Shown: positions 24,873 through 61,748 of the stretch, piece after piece
How the letters are laid out: each line of letters opens with the position of its first letter
Position numbering within the stretch: position 1 is the stretch's first letter
DNA from: Escherichia coli
Lineage (GTDB): Bacteria; Pseudomonadota; Gammaproteobacteria; Enterobacterales; Enterobacteriaceae
Direction: 5' to 3' (one strand)
Assembly: GCF_044324875.1 (NCBI RefSeq)
Contig: NZ_CP172185.1
DNA length: 64,000 nucleotides
Position numbers and translations under genes: made by a program
Notes under the pieces: model-generated
Told to the model about the DNA's origin: nothing
What the model saw: the letters and a program-made list of their open reading frames with translations, nothing else
Database searches by the model: none

Positions 24873-26202
24873 TCGTAAATATTTCGGTACCGATGGGATT
24901 CGTGGTCGTGTAGGGGATGCGCCGATCACCCCTGATTTTGTGCTTAAGCTGGGTTGGGCCGCGGGTAAAGTGCTGGCGCGCCACGGCTCCCGTAAGATCA
25001 TTATTGGTAAAGACACACGTATTTCTGGCTATATGCTGGAGTCAGCACTGGAAGCGGGTCTGGCGGCTGCCGGTCTTTCCGCGCTCTTCACTGGCCCGAT
25101 GCCAACACCGGCCGTGGCTTATCTGACGCGGACTTTCCGCGCAGAGGCTGGGATTGTGATATCTGCATCGCATAACCCGTTCTACGATAATGGCATTAAA
25201 TTTTTCTCTATCGACGGCACCAAACTACCGGATGCAGTAGAAGAGGCCATCGAAGCGGAAATGGAAAAAGAGATCAGCTGTGTTGATTCGGCAGAACTGG
25301 GTAAAGCCAGCCGTATCGTTGATGCTGCGGGTCGCTATATCGAGTTTTGCAAAGCCACGTTCCCGAACGAACTTAGCCTCAGTGAACTGAAGATTGTGGT
25401 GGATTGTGCAAACGGTGCGACTTATCACATCGCGCCGAACGTGCTGCGTGAACTGGGAGCGAACGTTATCGCTATCGGTTGTGAGCCGAACGGTGTAAAC
25501 ATCAATGCCGAAGTGGGGGCTACCGACGTTCGCGCGCTCCAGGCTCGTGTGCTGGCTGAAAAAGCGGATCTCGGTATTGCCTTCGACGGCGACGGCGATC
25601 GCGTGATTATGGTTGACCATGAAGGCAATAAAGTCGATGGCGATCAGATCATGTATATCATCGCGCGTGAAGGTCTTCGTCAGGGCCAGCTGCGTGGTGG
25701 CGCTGTGGGTACATTGATGAGCAACATGGGGATTGAACTGGCGCTGAAACAGTTAGGAATTCCATTTGCGCGCGCGAAAGTGGGTGACCGCTACGTACTG
25801 GAAAAAATGCAGGAGAAAGGCTGGCGTATCGGTGCAGAGAATTCCGGTCATGTGATCCTGCTGGATAAAACCACTACCGGTGACGGCATCGTTGCTGGCT
25901 TGCAGGTGCTGGCGGCGATGGCACGTAACCATATGAGCCTGCACGACCTTTGCAGCGGCATGAAAATGTTCCCGCAGATTCTGGTTAACGTGCGTTACAC
26001 CGCAGGTAGCGGCGATCCGCTTGAGCATGAGTCAGTTAAAGCCGTGACCGCAGAGGTTGAAGCTGCGCTGGGCAACCGTGGACGCGTTTTGCTGCGTAAA
26101 TCTGGCACCGAGCCGTTAATTCGCGTGATGGTAGAAGGTGAAGACGAAGCGCAGGTAACTGAATTTGCACACCGTATCGCCGATGCAGTAAAAGCCGTTT
26201 AA
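24865..26202 (+). CDS. glmM: Phosphoglucosamine mutase
   Basis: 445-aa ORF with active-site ISASHNP motif; 8-nt overlap with folP. Confidence 0.96.
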
Positions 26203-26218
26203 AGCGTTAGATAACTGG

Positions 26219-26250
26219 CTAAAAAGGCGGCGATTGTCGCCTTTTTTCTC
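26219..26250 (+). terminator. Intrinsic terminator after glmM
   Basis: aaaaaggcggcgattgtcgccttttttc. Confidence 0.7.
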
Positions 26251-26429
26251 GGCGAACACATCGGTTTTGCTGTTTTTTTCCGCAGTTGATACAATGCAAT
26301 AAAATTGCCCTTGCGAAGGTCATTCGCTTTGGTTAGTATTCACACCCGCTTCAGTGGGAAAGATTAAAAACTCCCGCTTTATTGGTTGAAGCATTGGTAC
26401 GCGGCAACTCCGCAAGGAACAGGTTGATT

Positions 26430-26762
26430 ATGTACGAAGCTCTTTTGGTAGTTTTCCTTATTGTGGCAATTGGCCTTGTTGGTCTGATCATGCTGCAGCA
26501 AGGTAAAGGCGCTGATATGGGAGCCTCCTTCGGAGCAGGCGCTTCCGCTACGCTGTTTGGTTCAAGTGGTTCTGGTAACTTCATGACCCGCATGACGGCG
26601 CTGCTGGCAACGTTATTCTTCATCATCAGTCTGGTGCTGGGTAACATCAATAGCAATAAAACCAATAAAGGTAGCGAATGGGAAAACCTGAGTGCGCCGG
26701 CGAAAACCGAACAAACTCAGTCAGCTGCTCCGGCTAAGCCGACCAGCGATATCCCGAACTAA
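26430..26762 (+). CDS. secG: Protein translocase subunit SecG
   Basis: ORF 26382..26762; start at Met of MYEALLVVFLIVAIGLVGLIMLQQGKGADMGASFGAGAS... (110 aa). Confidence 0.92.
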   Translation: MYEALLVVFLIVAIGLVGLIMLQQGKGADMGASFGAGASATLFGSSGSGNFMTRMTALLATLFFIISLVLGNINSNKTNKGSEWENLSAPAKTEQTQSAAPAKPTSDIPN

Positions 26763-26776
26763 AAAGTAGTATCCGT

Positions 26777-26863
26777 GCCGAGGTGGTGGAATTGGTAGAC
26801 ACGCTACCTTGAGGTGGTAGTGCCCAATAGGGCTTACGGGTTCAAGTCCCGTCCTCGGTACCA
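26777..26863 (+). tRNA. leuU: tRNA-Leu (anticodon GAG), co-transcribed with secG
   Basis: GCCGAGGTGGTGGAATTGGTAGACACGCTACCTTGAGGTGGTAG...GGTTCAAGTCCCGTCCTCGGTACCA: long variable arm, CTTGAGG anticodon loop, 3' CCA. Confidence 0.93.
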
Positions 26864-26873
26864 AATTCCAGAA

Positions 26874-26903
26874 AAGAGACGCTGAAAAGCGTCTTTTTTC
26901 GTT
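26874..26903 (+). terminator. Intrinsic terminator after leuU
   Basis: agacgc-tgaaaa-gcgtct followed by TTTTTT. Confidence 0.8.
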
Positions 26904-27319
26904 TTGGTCCTGGTCTGAGGAATGGTTGTCAGGTATCTGTATCTCGTCCAGTTGCTTTACTCGTAGCTGGTACTTTGAAACGATGGTGCCGGTACGCCTT
27001 AGTTATAAACTTTTCCCTTCTGCTGACATAATTGGCACTTTATTGTGTCAACTCCAGTTCCGGTACGAATACGGATATGTTTACTTCTCGATAAACCATC
27101 CTGCTCCTGTCAGTATAACTACTGATGGCTACGTTCTGCGTAATGTTTAGAGACGCATTGATAATGTTATTTAATTACTGAGAACAATGGCCGCATCATT
27201 TAAAAAGAAAAAACTAACAGTGTTTCGGTCTGATATGGATCAGAGTTGAAAAACATGTCTGATATAAAATTGAACATTGTTGATAATTGTTTATATTGGT
27301 TGTGAACTTGGATTTCTGG

Positions 27320-28945
27320 ATGACAGTATTCAACAAATTTGTTAGAAGTTTTAAATCTCATTGGTTGTTGTATCTTTGTGTTATTGTTTTTGGTATTACG
27401 AACTTAGTCGCCTCTTCCGGAGCGCATATGGTTCAGCGATTGCTGTTTTTCGTTCTGACCATCCTGGTTGTTAAACGTATATCATCCCTTCCGCTTCGCC
27501 TGCTTGTTGCCGCACCATTTGTGTTACTGACAGCGGCAGATATGAGTATTAGCCTCTATTCATGGTGTACCTTTGGTACAACTTTCAATGATGGATTTGC
27601 GATTAGTGTGCTGCAGAGTGATCCGGATGAAGTTGTCAAAATGCTGGGAATGTATATCCCTTATCTATGTGCTTTTGCCTTTTTATCCCTTCTTTTTTTT
27701 GCAGTAATAATAAAATATGATGTTTCCTTGCCGACAAAAAAAGTGACAGGAATATTATTGCTGATTGTCATTTCGGGAAGTTTATTTTCCGCTTGTCAAT
27801 TTGCTTATAAAGATGCAAAAAATAAAGAGGCGTTCAGTCCATATATACTAGCGTCGCGATTTGCTACCTATACGCCGTTTTTCAATCTCAATTATTTTGC
27901 TTTAGCAGCGAAAGAGCATCAAAGATTACTCTCAATTGCAAACACGGTGCCGTATTTTCAACTATCAGTCAGGGATACAGGTATTGATACCTACGTGTTG
28001 ATTGTGGGGGAGTCTGTACGTGTCGACAATATGTCTTTGTATGGATATACACGCTCTACGACACCGCAAGTCGAAGCACAAAGAAAACAGATCAAACTGT
28101 TTAATCAAGCAATAAGCGGTGCACCTTACACTGCGCTGTCGGTTCCCCTTTCTTTAACTGCTGATTCCGTTTTGAGTCATGACATTCATAATTACCCGGA
28201 CAACATTATTAATATGGCTAATCAAGCAGGATTTCAGACTTTCTGGCTAAGCTCGCAATCCGCTTTTCGGCAGAATGGTACAGCAGTTACCAGTATCGCC
28301 ATGCGCGCCATGGAAACAGTCTATGTCAGAGGATTTGATGAATTGTTGTTGCCGCATTTATCGCAAGCGTTACAGCAAAAGACGCAGCAAAAGAAACTGA
28401 TTGTTCTTCATTTAAATGGAAGCCATGAACCGGCTTGTAGCGCCTATCCGCAATCCAGCGCCGTGTTTCAACCGCAGGACGATCAGGATGCCTGCTATGA
28501 CAACTCCATTCATTACACAGATAGTTTGCTAGGTCAGGTTTTTGAATTATTAAAAGATCGCCGCGCCTCGGTCATGTATTTTGCCGACCACGGCCTGGAA
28601 CGCGACCCTACGAAGAAGAACGTCTATTTTCATGGAGGCAGGGAGGCCAGCCAGCAGGCATATCATGTCCCGATGTTTATCTGGTATAGCCCCGTTCTTG
28701 GGGATGGCGTGGATCGCACAACGGAAAACGATATCTTTTCCACTGCGTACAATAATTACCTTATTAATGCGTGGATGGGGGTAACAAAGCCGGAACAGCC
28801 GCAAACGCTGGAGGAAGTGATTGCACACTATAAAGGAGACTCACGGGTTGTAGATGCAAACCATGATGTTTTCGATTTTGTGATGCTAAGAAAGGAGTTT
28901 ACTGAGGATAAGCAAGGTAACCCCACCCCTGAAGGGCAGGGTTGA
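27320..28945 (+). CDS. yhbX: Putative phosphoethanolamine transferase (EptA/sulfatase family), polytopic N-terminus
   Basis: ORF 27287..28945; start at internal Met MTVFNKFVRSFKSHWLLYLCVIVFG... gives 541 aa as in K-12; preceded by a very AT-rich region. Confidence 0.85.
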   Translation: MTVFNKFVRSFKSHWLLYLCVIVFGITNLVASSGAHMVQRLLFFVLTILVVKRISSLPLRLLVAAPFVLLTAADMSISLYSWCTFGTTFNDGFAISVLQSDPDEVVKMLGMYIPYLCAFAFLSLLFFAVIIKYDVSLPTKKVTGILLLIVISGSLFSACQFAYKDAKNKEAFSPYILASRFATYTPFFNLNYFALAAKEHQRLLSIANTVPYFQLSVRDTGIDTYVLIVGESVRVDNMSLYGYTRSTTPQVEAQRKQIKLFNQAISGAPYTALSVPLSLTADSVLSHDIHNYPDNIINMANQAGFQTFWLSSQSAFRQNGTAVTSIAMRAMETVYVRGFDELLLPHLSQALQQKTQQKKLIVLHLNGSHEPACSAYPQSSAVFQPQDDQDACYDNSIHYTDSLLGQVFELLKDRRASVMYFADHGLERDPTKKNVYFHGGREASQQAYHVPMFIWYSPVLGDGVDRTTENDIFSTAYNNYLINAWMGVTKPEQPQTLEEVIAHYKGDSRVVDANHDVFDFVMLRKEFTEDKQGNPTPEGQG

Positions 28946-28952
28946 TGTCGAA

Positions 28953-30311
<1,359 letters not shown>

Positions 30312-43110: not shown

Positions 43111-44355
43111 ATGGCAACACTAACCACCACCCAAACGTCACCGTCGCTGCTTGGCGGCGTGGTGATTATCGGCGGCACCATTATTGGCGCAGGGATGTTT
43201 TCTCTGCCTGTGGTCATGTCCGGGGCGTGGTTCTTCTGGTCAATGGCGGCGCTGATCTTTACCTGGTTCTGTATGCTGCATTCCGGCTTGATGATTCTGG
43301 AAGCTAACCTGAATTACCGAATCGGTTCGAGTTTTGACACCATCACCAAAGATTTGCTGGGCAAAGGTTGGAACGTAGTCAACGGCATTTCCATTGCCTT
43401 TGTGCTCTATATCCTGACTTACGCCTATATTTCTGCCAGCGGTTCGATTCTGCATCACACCTTCGCGGAGATGTCGCTGAACGTCCCTGCACGGGCAGCT
43501 GGATTTGGTTTTGCACTACTGGTGGCGTTTGTGGTGTGGTTGAGCACCAAAGCGGTCAGCCGGATGACGGCGATTGTGCTGGGGGCGAAAGTCATTACGT
43601 TTTTCCTCACCTTCGGTAGCCTGCTGGGACATGTGCAGCCTGCGACATTGTTCAACGTCGCCGAAAGCAATGCGTCTTATGCACCGTATCTGCTGATGAC
43701 GCTGCCATTCTGTCTGGCATCGTTTGGTTATCACGGTAACGTGCCGAGCCTGATGAAGTATTACGGCAAAGATCCGAAAACCATCGTGAAATGCCTGGTG
43801 TACGGTACGCTGATGGCGCTGGCGCTGTATACCATCTGGTTGCTGGCGACGATGGGCAACATCCCTCGTCCGGAGTTTATCGGCATCGCCGAGAAGGGCG
43901 GTAATATTGATGTGCTGGTACAGGCGTTAAGCGGCGTGCTGAACAGCCGTAGCCTGGATCTTCTGCTGGTTGTGTTCTCAAACTTTGCGGTAGCGAGTTC
44001 GTTCCTTGGCGTAACGCTGGGTTTGTTTGACTATCTGGCAGATCTGTTTGGTTTCGATGACTCGGCTATGGGCCGCTTGAAAACAGCATTGTTGACCTTT
44101 GCACCGCCTGTTGTGGGTGGTTTGCTGTTCCCGAACGGATTCCTGTACGCCATTGGTTATGCTGGCTTAGCGGCTACCATCTGGGCGGCAATCGTTCCGG
44201 CGCTGCTGGCCCGCGCATCGCGTAAACGCTTTGGTAGCCCGAAATTCCGCGTCTGGGGCGGCAAGCCGATGATTGCGCTGATTCTGGTGTTTGGCGTCGG
44301 TAACGCACTGGTGCATATTTTATCGAGCTTTAATTTGCTGCCGGTGTATCAGTAA
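43111..44355 (+). CDS. mtr: Tryptophan-specific permease
   Basis: 414-aa polytopic [55 protein letters not shown]... Confidence 0.95.
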
Positions 44356-44363
44356 TTGAACGA

Positions 44364-44388
44364 GCCGGATGAGCAGTTTTCATCCGGC
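44364..44388. terminator. Perfect 9-bp-stem hairpin between convergent mtr and the 176-aa ORF; candidate terminator
   Basis: gccggatga-gcagttt-tcatccggc; no strong T-tract on either side, so function is uncertain. Confidence 0.45.
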
Positions 44389-44415
44389 AATAATTCACAA
44401 GTACACGAGATGGTA

Positions 44416-44946
44416 TCAAATAAACCCCTGTTTATTATAAAGTTCTTCAGCGAGAGCTTCCCCGTGCTCATCGAAAAAAGCATCGGCGATAGTTAAATTT
44501 TCTGCCTTAGGATTTGCCGTTATTTTGCTACCATTGGCATCAAATTCGAGCGCGATAGCGGTCTCCGAACCCCACCAGTAATAATAAATTAGCGCAAAAT
44601 TATTTTCCCCTGGCGTAATAAACTTCTCGATTCCCCGCACACAGGCCATGAGTGGCATGAAGATTTCATAGCTCTCTGAGAGAAATATGTGATCCATCGT
44701 GACTATCTGTGTTTCTTTATTAAAGTTGATATGTTCGGCATAAATATTCTTTTCACTTTCACCAGAATTACAAGCTGCAAGATTGTTAAGCATTTTTGCA
44801 GGATCGCCGTACAACCGCTGCTTCTCGATAAACCATGGCAACCAGTCGTCATGGTCTTTGATATTTGTTGCTGGTGAATGGAAAAACTTCTCGAGGTTAC
44901 TCTCGGTAATATGTGCATGAAGAAAAAAGGAAGCCGGTTCACTCAT
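44416..44946 (-). CDS. Hypothetical 176-aa protein, no recognisable family; no N-terminal hydrophobic segment, so probably cytoplasmic; in the insertion relative to K-12
   Basis: Only long ORF across this AT-rich stretch (MSEPASFFLHAHITESNLEKFF...ALEFDANGSKITANPKAEN...KQGFI); weak GAGA-type SD upstream; coding status not independently supported. Confidence 0.55.
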   Translation of the reverse strand: MSEPASFFLHAHITESNLEKFFHSPATNIKDHDDWLPWFIEKQRLYGDPAKMLNNLAACNSGESEKNIYAEHINFNKETQIVTMDHIFLSESYEIFMPLMACVRGIEKFITPGENNFALIYYYWWGSETAIALEFDANGSKITANPKAENLTIADAFFDEHGEALAEELYNKQGFI

Positions 44947-45103
44947 AATGATTTTCTCTGGTAATAAGTCGATTTGTTCATTTCTCTGTTTGGCGATGAT
45001 AAAACGATGACTATTTTATAAAAGTACAGAACTGGACCTTTCATCTATTTCATATCATAAGAAAATATATACTTGAACTGGCTCAGAATAAGCGGAATAC
45101 GAA

Positions 45104-45823
45104 ATGGGGCGTAAAGGACTACTTGCTATTGTATTGTTGAGCCTGTTTATCGCCATGATTTTTCAATTTTTCTGGCCTGCCCCACACGATGAACACGTTT
45201 TCCTGCCAGTTGAAAAACCTGTCGCACCGTCTTTAAAAATCATTCATCCTGGTGACCAGTTATTTATCCGCATTCTGAAAGCGGAAGATAAGCTGGAACT
45301 GTGGGCAAGCACCAACAACAAGCCTTACGAACTCTATAAAACCTGGACTATATGCGCGTGGTCTGGTGGCTTAGGGCCAAAACACAAACAGGGGGATGGT
45401 AAAAGCCCGGAAGGTTTTTATGCCACCAACAAAGAGTTGCTTAACCCAAACAGCCGCTATCATCTGGCATTTAATATTGGTTACCCGAATGCTTACGATC
45501 GGGCAAACGGCTACACCGGTGATTTCATTATGGTTCACGGAAACTGCGTTTCGGCGGGCTGCTATGCCATGACCGATGCTGGTATTGAAGAGATTTATCA
45601 ACTGGTGGCGCAGGCGCTGAATAGCGGGCAGAAGAGCGTGCCGGTGCATATCTTCCCGTTTGCGATGGACGAAGAAAATATGCGCCAGGCGCAGGTATGG
45701 CCGGAATATAATTTCTGGCGTATGTTGAAGCCCGGCTATGATTACTTTGAAAAAAATCGCCGATTGCCAACCATCACCGTTGAAAACCGGCGTTATAAAA
45801 TCAGCCCAACAACTCTTCCTTAA
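45104..45823 (+). CDS. YkuD-fold L,D-transpeptidase-like protein, YafK/DpaA paralogue, with N-terminal signal peptide or membrane anchor
   Basis: 239-aa ORF with hydrophobic N-terminus ([19 protein letters not shown]); conserved blocks [55 protein letters not shown] and LKPGYDYFE match the E. coli YafK sequence as I recall it, including the catalytic-Cys HG..S.GC motif. Confidence 0.8.
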
Positions 45824-47775: not shown

Positions 47776-48771
47776 TCACTGCCATTTACGGTGATACGCG
47801 CCAAGGGTGGTCTGCGTGCCTTCGGACATCGACCCGAGCGTCTCCATCCACGCGCTTTGCGGTACGAAGTTTTGCGGATCGGCCTTACAACGGTCGATAG
47901 CCTGACGCCAGACTTTCGCCACCTGGCTGACATACGCCGGGCTACGCTGGCGGCCTTCAATTTTCACCGAAGCAATATTCGCCGCCATTAACTCCGGCAG
48001 CAGTTCCAGGGTATTGAGACTGGTGGGTTCTTCCAGCGCGTGATAGCGCTCGCCGTCCACCAGATAACGCCCTTTACACAGCGTCGGATAACCTGCGTTT
48101 TCGCCATCCTGATAACGGTCGATCAGCACTTCGTTCAGGCGGGATTCCAGCCCCTGCGGCGTTTGTTGCCAGCGCACGAAACGGGCCGGAGAACACGCAC
48201 CCACAGTGTTGGGCGACTCACCCGTCAGATACGACGACAGATAGCAACGCCCTTCCGACATAATGCACAGGCTGCCGAAAGCAAACACTTCCAGCGGGAC
48301 AGGTGTGACCCGAGCCAGTTGTTTCACCTGATGAATCGACAACACGCGCGGCAGCACCACGCGTGCAACGTCAAAATGGCGATGATAAAAGTTAATCGCC
48401 TCTTCATTGGTCGCCGAAGCCTGCACCGATACGTGACGTTCAATATGCGGGTAACGTTCGGCGGCGTACTCCAGCATGGCGAGGTCGGCGAGGATCAGCG
48501 CGTCGGCACCCAGCTGCGCCGCCATATCCACGGCGCGCTGCCAACGGGCGTAACCGTCCGGATGCGCAAAAGTGTTAATCGCGATGTGAAGTTTGCGGCG
48601 ATGTTGATGGACAAAACTCACCGCTTCCTGCAATTTTTTCTCGGTAAAGTTAAGGCCGGCGAAGTGACGGGCATTAGTATCATCTTTTAGCCCGATATAA
48701 ACAGCATCTGCGCCGTTTTCGATGGTCGCCTTAAGCGCCGGGAGATTTCCGGCAGGGCAGAGCAGCTCCAT
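47776..48771 (-). CDS. ubiU: U32-family protein of O2-independent ubiquinone biosynthesis, UbiU
   Basis: ORF 47776..48798; start at internal Met MELLCPAGNLPALKATIENGADAVYIG... (331 aa). Confidence 0.88.
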   Translation of the reverse strand: MELLCPAGNLPALKATIENGADAVYIGLKDDTNARHFAGLNFTEKKLQEAVSFVHQHRRKLHIAINTFAHPDGYARWQRAVDMAAQLGADALILADLAMLEYAAERYPHIERHVSVQASATNEEAINFYHRHFDVARVVLPRVLSIHQVKQLARVTPVPLEVFAFGSLCIMSEGRCYLSSYLTGESPNTVGACSPARFVRWQQTPQGLESRLNEVLIDRYQDGENAGYPTLCKGRYLVDGERYHALEEPTSLNTLELLPELMAANIASVKIEGRQRSPAYVSQVAKVWRQAIDRCKADPQNFVPQSAWMETLGSMSEGTQTTLGAYHRKWQ

Positions 48772-48979
48772 AATTTTTCCTGAAGGTTGCGCTATCAAAG
48801 CGCAAAAATGTTAACGAACTGGGATTTTAGTTAACCTTGCTGCGACAATTTTTGATTTAAGGCAGTTAAAGTTGTATTGGTGGTAGCAGCAATTTCATAT
48901 GGAATTGTTGATTTATACCGCTATGTTATTTTTCTGATATGGCAAAATAGGATGATTGTTGAAACAGGGAGTAAAACTC

Positions 48980-49504
48980 GTGTTGGATAAACTGCGTTCC
49001 CGTATTGTGCATTTGGGGCCATCTCTGTTGAGTGTACCGGTAAAACTGACGCCATTTGCGCTAAAACGCCAGGTTCTTGAGCAGGTCCTAAGCTGGCAAT
49101 TCCGTCAGGCGCTGAATGATGGCGAGCTGGAGTTTCTTGAAGGCCGCTGGTTAAGTATTCATGTGCGTGATATTGACCTGCAATGGTTTACCTCGGTGGT
49201 GAATGGCAAACTGGTCGTTAGCCAGAACGCGCAAGCTGATGTGAGTTTTAGTGCCGACGCCAGCGATCTGCTGATGATTGCGGCGCGTAAACAAGATCCG
49301 GATACGCTCTTCTTCCAGCGTCGGCTGGTAATTGAAGGCGATACGGAGCTGGGGCTGTATGTGAAAAACCTGATGGACGCCATTGAACTGGAGCAAATGC
49401 CGAAAGCCTTACGCATGATGCTGCTGCAACTGGCGGATTTTGTTGAGGCGGGAATGAAAACCGCGCCTGAAACCAAACAGACATCGGTAGGTGAACCATG
49501 CTAA
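48980..49504 (+). CDS. ubiT: SCP2-domain lipid-binding protein UbiT
   Basis: ORF 48956..49504 (TTG); start set at GTG 48980 to give MLDKLRSRIVHLGPS... (174 aa). Confidence 0.85.
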   Translation: MLDKLRSRIVHLGPSLLSVPVKLTPFALKRQVLEQVLSWQFRQALNDGELEFLEGRWLSIHVRDIDLQWFTSVVNGKLVVSQNAQADVSFSADASDLLMIAARKQDPDTLFFQRRLVIEGDTELGLYVKNLMDAIELEQMPKALRMMLLQLADFVEAGMKTAPETKQTSVGEPC

Positions 49505-51295: not shown

Positions 51296-52045
<750 letters not shown>

Positions 52046-60232: not shown

Positions 60233-60709
60233 TTAGTCAGGGATTTGTTCTTTTTGATCGCCAGGGACGTCCTGAATGAAAACATTCACGCCACGTTGTT
60301 TAATAAAACGTAAGTCCGTGAGATCCTGGTCATCGACATAAACTTTACTGCTGATTTGCTTTTTCCCTTCCGAGAAATGCATATTGCCGACGTTGACATC
60401 TTTCAGGTCAATACCACCTTCTACCAATTTACGTACCGTTTGTGGCGTACGGCAAATCAGGAAGATCTTTTGATGCGGTGCAGCTTTGCCGATGACGTTA
60501 ATGGTTTTTTCGATAGTAAAGAAACGAATGCCAAAGCCGTAGGTTTCTGCGGTAATACTCATTAATTTCTGTTGAATATCATCGTTAGCGACAACATCAT
60601 CCACAACTACCAGCAGATTTGCACCGATGGTAGATGTCCAGGTCACGCCAACCTGACCGTGAACCAGACGGTTATCAATACGGGTTAAGAGAATATTTGG
60701 ACTGCTCAT
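60233..60709 (-). CDS. agaB: PTS galactosamine EIIB component
   Basis: 158-aa ORF MSSPNILLTRIDNRLVHGQVGVTWTSTIGANLLVVVDD... Confidence 0.93.
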   Translation of the reverse strand: MSSPNILLTRIDNRLVHGQVGVTWTSTIGANLLVVVDDVVANDDIQQKLMSITAETYGFGIRFFTIEKTINVIGKAAPHQKIFLICRTPQTVRKLVEGGIDLKDVNVGNMHFSEGKKQISSKVYVDDQDLTDLRFIKQRGVNVFIQDVPGDQKEQIPD

Positions 60710-60875
60710 TGTGTAATCCTCACCATAAAGTTGAATAATATAATTTTTTTAAATATATTATTGTTGCGATATTTTACTGATGTATTTATTAAGGTTTAGT
60801 TATCTCCTTTACCATTAAGGCACTCCCCGATATTAATCGGGAAGTACATTGGGATAAATCATAAAAAACTAATGA

Positions 60876-61748
<873 letters not shown>

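Follow-up and report, generated by a model that had tools for sequence, protein, structure and literature searches.

The AT-rich stretch upstream of yhbX is of an ordinary kind, the AT-rich promoter and 5' region belonging to an accessory gene that was acquired. It lies in a 64,000-nucleotide stretch of Escherichia coli DNA (contig NZ_CP172185.1 of assembly GCF_044324875.1), which is the whole sequence that we analysed and which we refer to as the window. In the explanation that we regard as probable, the locus is an acquired low-GC cassette whose AT-rich core lies under a nucleoid-protein filament, most likely of H-NS, that keeps yhbX expression low. An earlier note, made from the sequence alone, had picked out the interval 26905-27319 as a very AT-rich region with A/T tracts, typical of H-NS-silenced promoters, upstream of an EptA-family gene.

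The genes folP, glmM, secG, leuU and yhbX follow one another on the plus strand of the window, with argG on the minus strand. secG (26430-26762, plus strand) precedes leuU, a tRNA-Leu(GAG) gene at 26777-26863 on the plus strand that is found by ARAGORN, matched by the Rfam tRNA model with 52.8 bits and annotated in RefSeq, and leuU is the last conserved gene ahead of a variable cassette. An inverted repeat at 26871-26900, with a 13-bp stem and then a T-run, has the form of the intrinsic terminator of secG-leuU on the plus strand. It can also be read on the minus strand (26894-26877), and it is kept in Salmonella and Citrobacter. yhbX (27320-28945, plus strand, 541 aa; RefSeq annotation, Pfam Sulfatase) and argG (28953-30296, minus strand) are convergent, their stop codons lie 7 bp apart, and we found no terminator between them. 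The leuU-yhbX spacer is 456 bp long and the flagged interval makes up 415 bp of it. The placement of the interval between the leuU terminator and yhbX, as RefSeq sets the start, was correct. The 801 bp around the flagged interval are 100% identical to AR_0077 and 98% identical to K-12 MG1655.

The flagged 415 bp have a GC content of 38.6%, against 51.6% for the window as a whole, and only 1.75% of all 415-bp windows have a GC content as low as this. The window has 29 intergenic regions that measure 80 bp or more, with a mean GC content of 48%; among them the spacer is the longest and ranks second in AT-richness, and the argG/metY spacer, at 37.5% GC, is lower. The region is therefore AT-rich overall, as claimed, but unevenly so. 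The leuU-proximal half of the spacer (26906-27100), in which we identified no element, is moderately AT-rich at 43.9% GC, whereas the yhbX-proximal part (27101-27319, plus strand), the presumed yhbX promoter region, has 33.8% GC overall and 29% in 27200-27319. The lowest GC content of any 200-bp window is 27.5%, in the one starting at 27198, which spans the yhbX start codon. A continuous trough of 200-bp windows below 36% GC extends over 27067-27938. No other such trough in the window is as long. This one straddles the yhbX start, and about 600 bp of it is yhbX coding sequence. The coding strand is T-rich in the trough (AT skew -0.32 to -0.36), as is expected from the membrane-helix codons at the 5' end of yhbX. 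The A/T tracts, however, are not a distinctive feature. The flagged interval has five runs of at least four A or T and five W-tracts of at least 7, and shuffles of the same composition have 5.4 and 5.1, so that the tracts occur at the frequency expected from composition and there is no enrichment. TpA steps in the AT-rich region have twice the mean density of the window, and -10-like hexamers in the yhbX-proximal spacer reach 14.5 per kb against 4.4 per kb in the window (3.3-fold).

The spacer and yhbX together form a variable low-GC cassette at 26906-28951, with breakpoints taken from an alignment with an alternative allele. The cassette is 2,046 bp long and has 42.3% GC; its flanks, over 2 kb on each side, have 52% and 49% GC. 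Its left junction (26905/26906) directly follows the leuU terminator, and its right junction is 1-2 nt short of the stop codon of argG. Among 5426 complete E. coli genomes, 5169 carry this cassette and 237 carry an alternative one of 1.2 kb and 33-43% GC, which encodes a 317-aa XRE-type helix-turn-helix protein from a gene on the opposite strand. The cassette is absent from this slot in the three sampled genomes outside E. coli, those of Salmonella enterica subsp. diarizonae, Citrobacter sp. MGH106 and C. amalonaticus. The leuU-argG gap is about 180-210 bp in all three, and in the sampled Salmonella and Citrobacter it is gene-free, with REP-like sequence and the argG terminator. A homologue of this terminator is retained by the alternative E. 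coli allele and lost from the yhbX allele. A scan of genome contigs by a leuU pattern returned 22 loci, none of them from Escherichia, and a scan of genome contigs with YhbX peptides gave no match. Between the cassette ends we found no direct or inverted repeats of at least 8 bp, and neither att-like nor terminal inverted repeats. yhbX is the only gene within the cassette, which holds no integrase gene, and no phage carrying the cassette was found.

Matches to the cassette on plasmids proved to be mislabelled chromosomes, except for one true paralogue on an E. coli plasmid that is 64% identical to YhbX and has 43.7% GC. In a search of 1.84 billion cluster representatives, the best relatives of YhbX outside E. 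coli have 42-48% identity and come from Buttiauxella, Pectobacterium, Mixta and Microvirgula; a Proteus relative has 34% identity. The Buttiauxella homologue is found elsewhere in its genome, flanked by elaA and kdp. It has 42.6% GC in a locus of 49% GC, and its upstream spacer, at 33.8% GC, has no sequence homology to the E. coli spacer. Among eight E. coli strains, 51 of the 72 segregating sites in yhbX are at third codon positions, which indicates purifying selection; its third positions are about half as diverse as those of the adjoining glmM, and in one strain the gene is frameshifted. A divergent copy of the locus (82% identity) was discarded, as it comes from a bisulfite-converted E. 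coli assembly in which 187 of 212 glmM differences are C to T. The distribution of cassettes in this slot, the distant low-GC relatives, the purifying selection and the frameshifted strain together point to yhbX being an acquired, nearly fixed and dispensable gene. The locus has two traits expected of xenogeneic DNA that H-NS silences, namely high AT content over several hundred base pairs (42.3% GC in the cassette and an 870-bp trough below 36% GC) and restriction to a lineage (a slot empty in Salmonella and Citrobacter and replaced in 237 E. coli genomes).

Data on protein occupancy come from calls of extended protein occupancy domains (EPODs) made by IPOD-HR in K-12 under six conditions (Freddolino et al. 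2021, PMC8282354, S7 Data), and we confirmed that their coordinates refer to NC_000913.3. In that genome yhbX is annotated at 3319988-3321613 and leuU at 3322072-3322158. An EPOD was called over this locus in four of the six conditions: at 3320485-3322255 in the wild type in exponential phase in rich defined medium, at 3320460-3322070 in stationary phase, at 3320460-3322755 in a purR mutant and at 3320335-3322195 in a lexA mutant (PMC8282354). No EPOD was called at yhbX in the wild type in minimal glucose or in an argR mutant (PMC8282354). The absence from two of the six conditions suggests that occupancy is conditional or near the calling threshold. By way of the K-12 annotation and our alignment, the stationary-phase EPOD corresponds to 26865-28473 in the window, accurate to a few bp, and the exponential-phase EPOD in rich medium to about 26680-28448. 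The K-12 domains measure 1.6-2.3 kb and take in the entire spacer together with about 1.15 kb at the 5' end of yhbX. The boundary of the stationary-phase domain coincides exactly with the leuU gene. In K-12, the strain from which all these occupancy data come, the homologous region thus shows the continuous occupancy over about 1 kb or more by which an EPOD is recognized.

The extent of the EPOD tracks the GC profile of the locus. In the rich-medium list it is the sole EPOD between 3.289 and 3.360 Mb (about 71 kb), and of the eight low-GC troughs in our window only that of yhbX matches a K-12 EPOD. Neither the argG/metY spacer nor a patch of 27% GC in agaS does so, and since both are as AT-rich as the yhbX region or more so, composition alone is not diagnostic. 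We also considered the agaS patch as an internal control with a second EPOD and rejected it, as the K-12 EPOD in question is that of the yraHIJK operon, which is missing from the window strain.

As a class, EPODs have a high AT content and low transcription, with enrichment for H-NS, HU and Lrp; the class with high H-NS holds 72.4% of them, and 28% are not H-NS-rich (PMC8282354). The claim that the region is silenced by H-NS therefore receives indirect support, from the EPOD over the K-12 homologue in four of six conditions and from the large share of EPODs that are H-NS-rich. Our analysis supports the view that the locus is a protein-coated and probably silent domain, and it makes H-NS a plausible coating protein. 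We infer that H-NS occupies the region and that this occupancy represses yhbX. In the papers that mention yhbX we found no report of H-NS binding or of hns-dependent yhbX expression, and the supplements of Sastry 2019 do not mention the gene. Silencing of yhbX would not be absolute, because the gene takes part in an excludon defined from RNA-seq coverage (PMC12288877), a screen recorded a phenotype of the envelope or permeability type for its knockout (PMC4551910), and the EPOD is absent in two conditions. The proposed sequence of events is as follows. The cassette would have entered the Escherichia lineage by insertion into the gap that separates the leuU terminator from the stop codon of argG, and the flagged interval would be the upstream non-coding part of this 2-kb low-GC unit. 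Its most AT-rich core, at about 27100-27940, comprises the putative promoter and the initial 600 bp of yhbX, and would serve as the platform on which a nucleoid-protein filament, most probably of H-NS (with StpA or Hha), nucleates and spreads. Such a filament, extending from the promoter across the 5' half of yhbX, would hold the gene and the many promoter-like sequences at low expression in standard growth. The raised densities of TpA steps and of -10-like hexamers agree with this reading.

The high-affinity nucleation motif of H-NS is the 10-mer TCGATAAATT. A scan with this motif gave best matches of 8/10, at 27088 and 27330, and no local enrichment. A motif like TCGATAAATT is not required for H-NS to bind AT-rich tracts.

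The spacer contains two overlapping candidate sigma-70-like promoters on the plus strand, CTGATA-17-GATAAT at 27259-27287 and TTGAAC-16-TATATT at 27270-27297, each with 9 of 12 matches. Shuffles lead us to expect 2.3 such matches where two were found. A candidate extended -10-like sequence, TGaTATAAA, can be read at 27260-27268 on the same strand. The candidate promoters sit 20-60 bp upstream of the ATG at 27320, with candidate transcription starts near 27275, 27294 and 27304, and we infer that the true promoter is at about 27259-27297. A palindrome, TCTGAT-ATGG-ATCAGA, occupies 27229-27244. A 9-mer from it, GTCTGATAT, recurs as a direct repeat at 27257-27265, and repeats as short as this can be due to chance. 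From its sequence, the palindrome could be a candidate regulator binding site. A possible Fur box at 27160 was rejected, as its 13/19 match is no better than chance (the window has 12 of this quality), and visual checks of the spacer for PhoP, PmrA and CpxR boxes gave no convincing site.

The earlier note pointed to an upstream ATG at 27287, in the list of open reading frames, that extends yhbX by 11 residues beyond the K-12-length start. The extension has that length (552 against 541 aa), but the codon at 27287-27289 (plus strand) is TTG. This in-frame TTG opens the 552-aa frame in the list of open reading frames, and it is an unlikely start codon, with no Shine-Dalgarno-like sequence upstream. 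None of the homologue N-termini reaches into the extra 11 residues, and the 552-aa form appears only in a few automatic database annotations. The ATG at 27320 is taken as the start because it is the RefSeq choice, agrees with the homologue N-termini and has GGA 7 nt upstream, and because two of the three candidate promoters would initiate transcription downstream of 27287. The extension is an artefact of listing an open reading frame that starts at TTG. As for other contents of the spacer, an Rfam search of the region up to E = 1 found only the tRNA, RNA fold z-scores are unremarkable (-1.6 on the plus and -0.35 on the minus strand for the spacer, +1.2 for the leader), a 74-aa ORF at 26926-27150 has no Pfam match, and the curated K-12 annotation has no feature in the spacer. 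Other laboratories have placed a cat marker in the leuU-proximal stretch, treating it as a neutral site (bioRxiv 10.1101/2023.02.03.527047).

YhbX matches the Pfam family PF00884 (Sulfatase) over residues 224-466 (E = 2.3e-56). With phmmer, residues 41-460 align with full-length Neisseria EptA (5fgn 56-489, E = 2.2e-23), an alignment that takes in the N-terminal membrane domain, and the closest PDB alignment is with E. coli EptC. The Pfam model EptA_B_N has no match in YhbX at E up to 0.01. Six residues (E242, T282, H380, D434, H435 and H449 in the 552-aa numbering) are invariant in 12 homologues, and they align with the GE, T, GSH, DH and H of EptA. We take T282 to be the catalytic nucleophile and the remaining residues (Glu, Asp and His) to bind metal, roles known from structures of EptA and MCR-1. 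The NCBIfam scores nevertheless lie far below every cut-off, with 154.9 of 500 bits for the generic domain model, 142.8 of 404 for CptA, 121.3 of 561 for EptA and 107.5 of 493 for EptB, and YhbX is also far below all cut-offs for MCR families. The label 'EptA-family' thus holds in the broad sense, in that YhbX is predicted to be a membrane protein of the phosphoethanolamine-transferase family with its catalytic residues kept, and fails in the narrow sense of the EptA, EptB and CptA subfamilies. YhbX has no established function in the literature (PMC4013655).

The same observations can be read in other ways. The AT-richness may have been inherited from the donor and combined with the AT bias of intergenic DNA and membrane helices, in which case the occupancy would be passive, perhaps by Lrp, HU, Hfq or Fis-independent binders, and would have little regulatory meaning. 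This has an appreciable, though minority, chance of being correct. Low GC is shared by the gene family, at 42.6% in the Buttiauxella homologue and 43.7% in the plasmid paralogue, the argG/metY spacer is as AT-rich as that of yhbX, the A/T tracts are at the level predicted by composition, the 5' coding strand is strongly T-rich, and more than a quarter of the published EPODs (the 28% given above) are not H-NS-rich. Against a purely compositional account, the yhbX trough is alone among the eight troughs of the window in coinciding with a K-12 EPOD, and low transcription is typical of the EPOD class. The spacer also has 3.2-4.6 segregating sites per 100 bp among the eight strains, against 9.4 per 100 at the third positions of yhbX, which suggests some constraint.

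A conditional promoter, with sites for a regulator or an alternative sigma factor (sigma-32, envelope stress) that induces yhbX, would make the AT-richness incidental, and this we consider improbable. K-12 has CTTGAAA at the equivalent of 26974-26980 in the window, which we take to be the sigma-32 -35 consensus, but the window strain reads TTTGAAA at this site. A genomic SELEX peak of RpoH holoenzyme in the yhbX/leuU spacer would fit such a promoter, although it is weak (intensity 3.2) and barely over the threshold of the study (PMC5493296). The palindrome at 27229-27244 with its repeated 9-mer would also fit such a promoter. Two blocks, 27121-27216 and 27274-27319, show no polymorphism among the eight strains, and together with the palindrome they may be regulator sites; the checks against Fur, PhoP, PmrA and CpxR consensus sequences gave nothing above chance. 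It is very improbable that the spacer contains an unannotated gene, such as one for a small protein or for an sRNA, or that a longer form of YhbX starts at the TTG. The length of the spacer, the 74-aa ORF, the in-frame TTG and the few 552-aa database entries would be accounted for in this way, but Rfam, the fold z-scores, Pfam and the curated K-12 annotation are all empty for the spacer, the homologue N-termini end at or inside the start defined by the ATG, the TTG lacks a Shine-Dalgarno-like sequence, and the cat cassette inserted in the spacer serves as a neutral marker.

The silencing of AT-rich acquired DNA by H-NS is described for enterobacteria (Navarre 2006, Lucchini 2006 and Oshima 2006, as cited in PMC3064808 and PMC8282354). 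The yhbX locus resembles such cases in being a low-GC, lineage-restricted segment with a trough over the promoter and the 5' coding sequence, dense promoter-like hexamers and an occupancy domain on the kilobase scale. It differs from them in the small size of the domain (about 1.6-2.3 kb), in the absence of the domain from two of six conditions, and in its cargo, which is one nearly fixed gene and not a pathogenicity island or a prophage. With regard to published EPODs, the K-12 homologue is itself among the calls, although the paper did not single out the locus and its calls are from K-12 and not from the window strain (PMC8282354). The cassette also resembles tRNA-adjacent genomic islets, as it lies just 3' of a tRNA gene, has atypical GC content and has alternative occupants among strains. 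Unlike these, it lacks an integrase, a duplicated tRNA 3' end and flanking repeats, and its junction falls after the terminator and not inside the tRNA gene. YhbX shares with the products of eptA/pmrC, eptB, cptA/eptC and opgE/ybiP an N-terminal membrane domain and a sulfatase-type domain with conserved Thr and metal ligands. It differs from these named paralogues in scoring below the subfamily cut-offs and in being encoded in a dispensable cassette, and we found no control of the PmrA, PhoP or sigma-E type.

A possible role of argG read-through is suggested by the other end of the cassette. argG-yhbX is listed as a convergent excludon on the basis of RNA-seq coverage (PMC12288877). No terminator-like site was found on the minus strand across yhbX and the ancestral argG terminator has been lost, so argG transcripts should run antisense through yhbX. 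The pair resembles other convergent excludons, with stop codons 7 bp apart and no intervening terminator; it concerns the 3' end of yhbX, however, and not the flagged upstream region, and a link to silencing is speculative. The four conditions in which the EPOD was called (rich-medium exponential phase, stationary phase, and the purR and lexA mutants) are those in which repression of argG by ArgR is expected, and the two in which it is missing (minimal glucose and the argR mutant) are those in which derepression of argG is expected. As a background rate, 16% of rich-medium EPODs are lost on going to minimal medium and 46% on going to the argR mutant; for small EPODs the figures are 19% and 63%. 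From these rates the probability that the coincidence with argG is due to chance is roughly 0.1 or more. We therefore put forward as a hypothesis, and not as a finding, that the silencing domain could be gated by argG, with arginine-controlled read-through stripping the filament and so coupling an envelope-modification gene to arginine limitation. We think that this is unlikely to be the case.

The locus is already implicit in published genome-wide occupancy maps of K-12, and as a textbook-type case in the best-studied bacterium it carries little weight as a discovery. The practical yield is that the start codon of yhbX is settled as the ATG at 27320 and the codon at 27287 is corrected to TTG, and that the spacer and yhbX can be treated as one dispensable cassette in a slot that is dimorphic in E. 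coli. Since YhbX falls outside all characterised subfamilies, the label 'EptA-family' should not be taken to imply lipid A modification or polymyxin resistance. The one point of some reach is the argG read-through lead, which, if true, would make the yhbX locus a compact case from nature in which transcription reshapes a silencing domain.

The slot between leuU and argG is dimorphic across E. coli. The AT-rich spacer and yhbX (26906-28951 in the window) occupy it in 5169 of 5426 genomes, while 237 genomes have instead an unrelated AT-rich segment of 1.2 kb. In a locus with this alternative allele (L003, 6204-7370) the segment encodes a 317-aa protein, which has an XRE-type HTH at its N-terminus and is otherwise uncharacterised. 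An NCBIfam search with this protein gave no match, and comparison with PADLOC and PHROGs returned weak HTH matches only.

In the yhbX allele, the stop codons of yhbX and the convergent argG are separated by 7 bp (28946-28952), with no terminator between them. Salmonella, Citrobacter and E. coli with the alternative allele have an argG terminator, which the yhbX allele lacks. Nor were any terminator-like sites found on the minus strand across yhbX, in a scan of 27300-29600. A convergent argG-yhbX excludon has already been published (PMC12288877).

An extended protein occupancy domain (EPOD) is called over yhbX in four of the K-12 IPOD-HR conditions (PMC8282354), at NC_000913.3 3320335-3322755 (about 26180-28600 in the window). 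There is no such call for the argR mutant or for minimal glucose, the two conditions in which argG should be derepressed. Based on background rates of EPOD loss, the probability of such a pattern arising by chance is roughly 0.1.

The lowest-GC genes of the window are yhbW (43900-45500) and yhbQ (48700-49100), at 41.3% each, with yhbX higher at 43.2%; no EPOD listed for K-12 in rich medium coincides with yhbW or yhbQ. A very AT-rich patch within agaS (60593-60983, minimum 27% GC) includes a palindromic Fur-consensus match (14/19, at 60962-60980), and its K-12 equivalent has no EPOD in rich medium. The yraHIJK fimbrial operon, which in K-12 lies between agaI and rsmI (3287426-3291330) and is an EPOD, is absent from this strain (about 51900-52000). 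Within the yhbX spacer, positions 26974-26980 read TTTGAAA, where K-12 has CTTGAAA, the sigma-32 -35 consensus. A published SELEX study with the RpoH holoenzyme gives a weak peak in the yhbX/leuU spacer (PMC5493296), and the site is close to it.

One seeming relative of the whole region, a Logan assembly with 82% identity (L027, SRR3359616_619), was rejected as bisulfite-converted E. coli, because C-to-T changes account for 187 of the 212 differences in its glmM. Assemblies of this kind give false divergent clusters in the protein collections; P0159 is one of these, and there are probably others.

A 553-aa paralogue, 64% identical to YhbX, is encoded on the E. coli plasmid pRHB40-C01_2 (CP057032.1; L029, 438-2099) by a gene that is also low in GC and adjoins an MFS transporter gene. 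Of the eight strains sampled, one, 2014C-4423 (L033, 2221-3847), has a frameshift in yhbX, and 88 contigs carry truncated YhbX fragments of 147 aa (cluster of P0317). Together, the frameshift and the fragments are consistent with occasional loss of yhbX.
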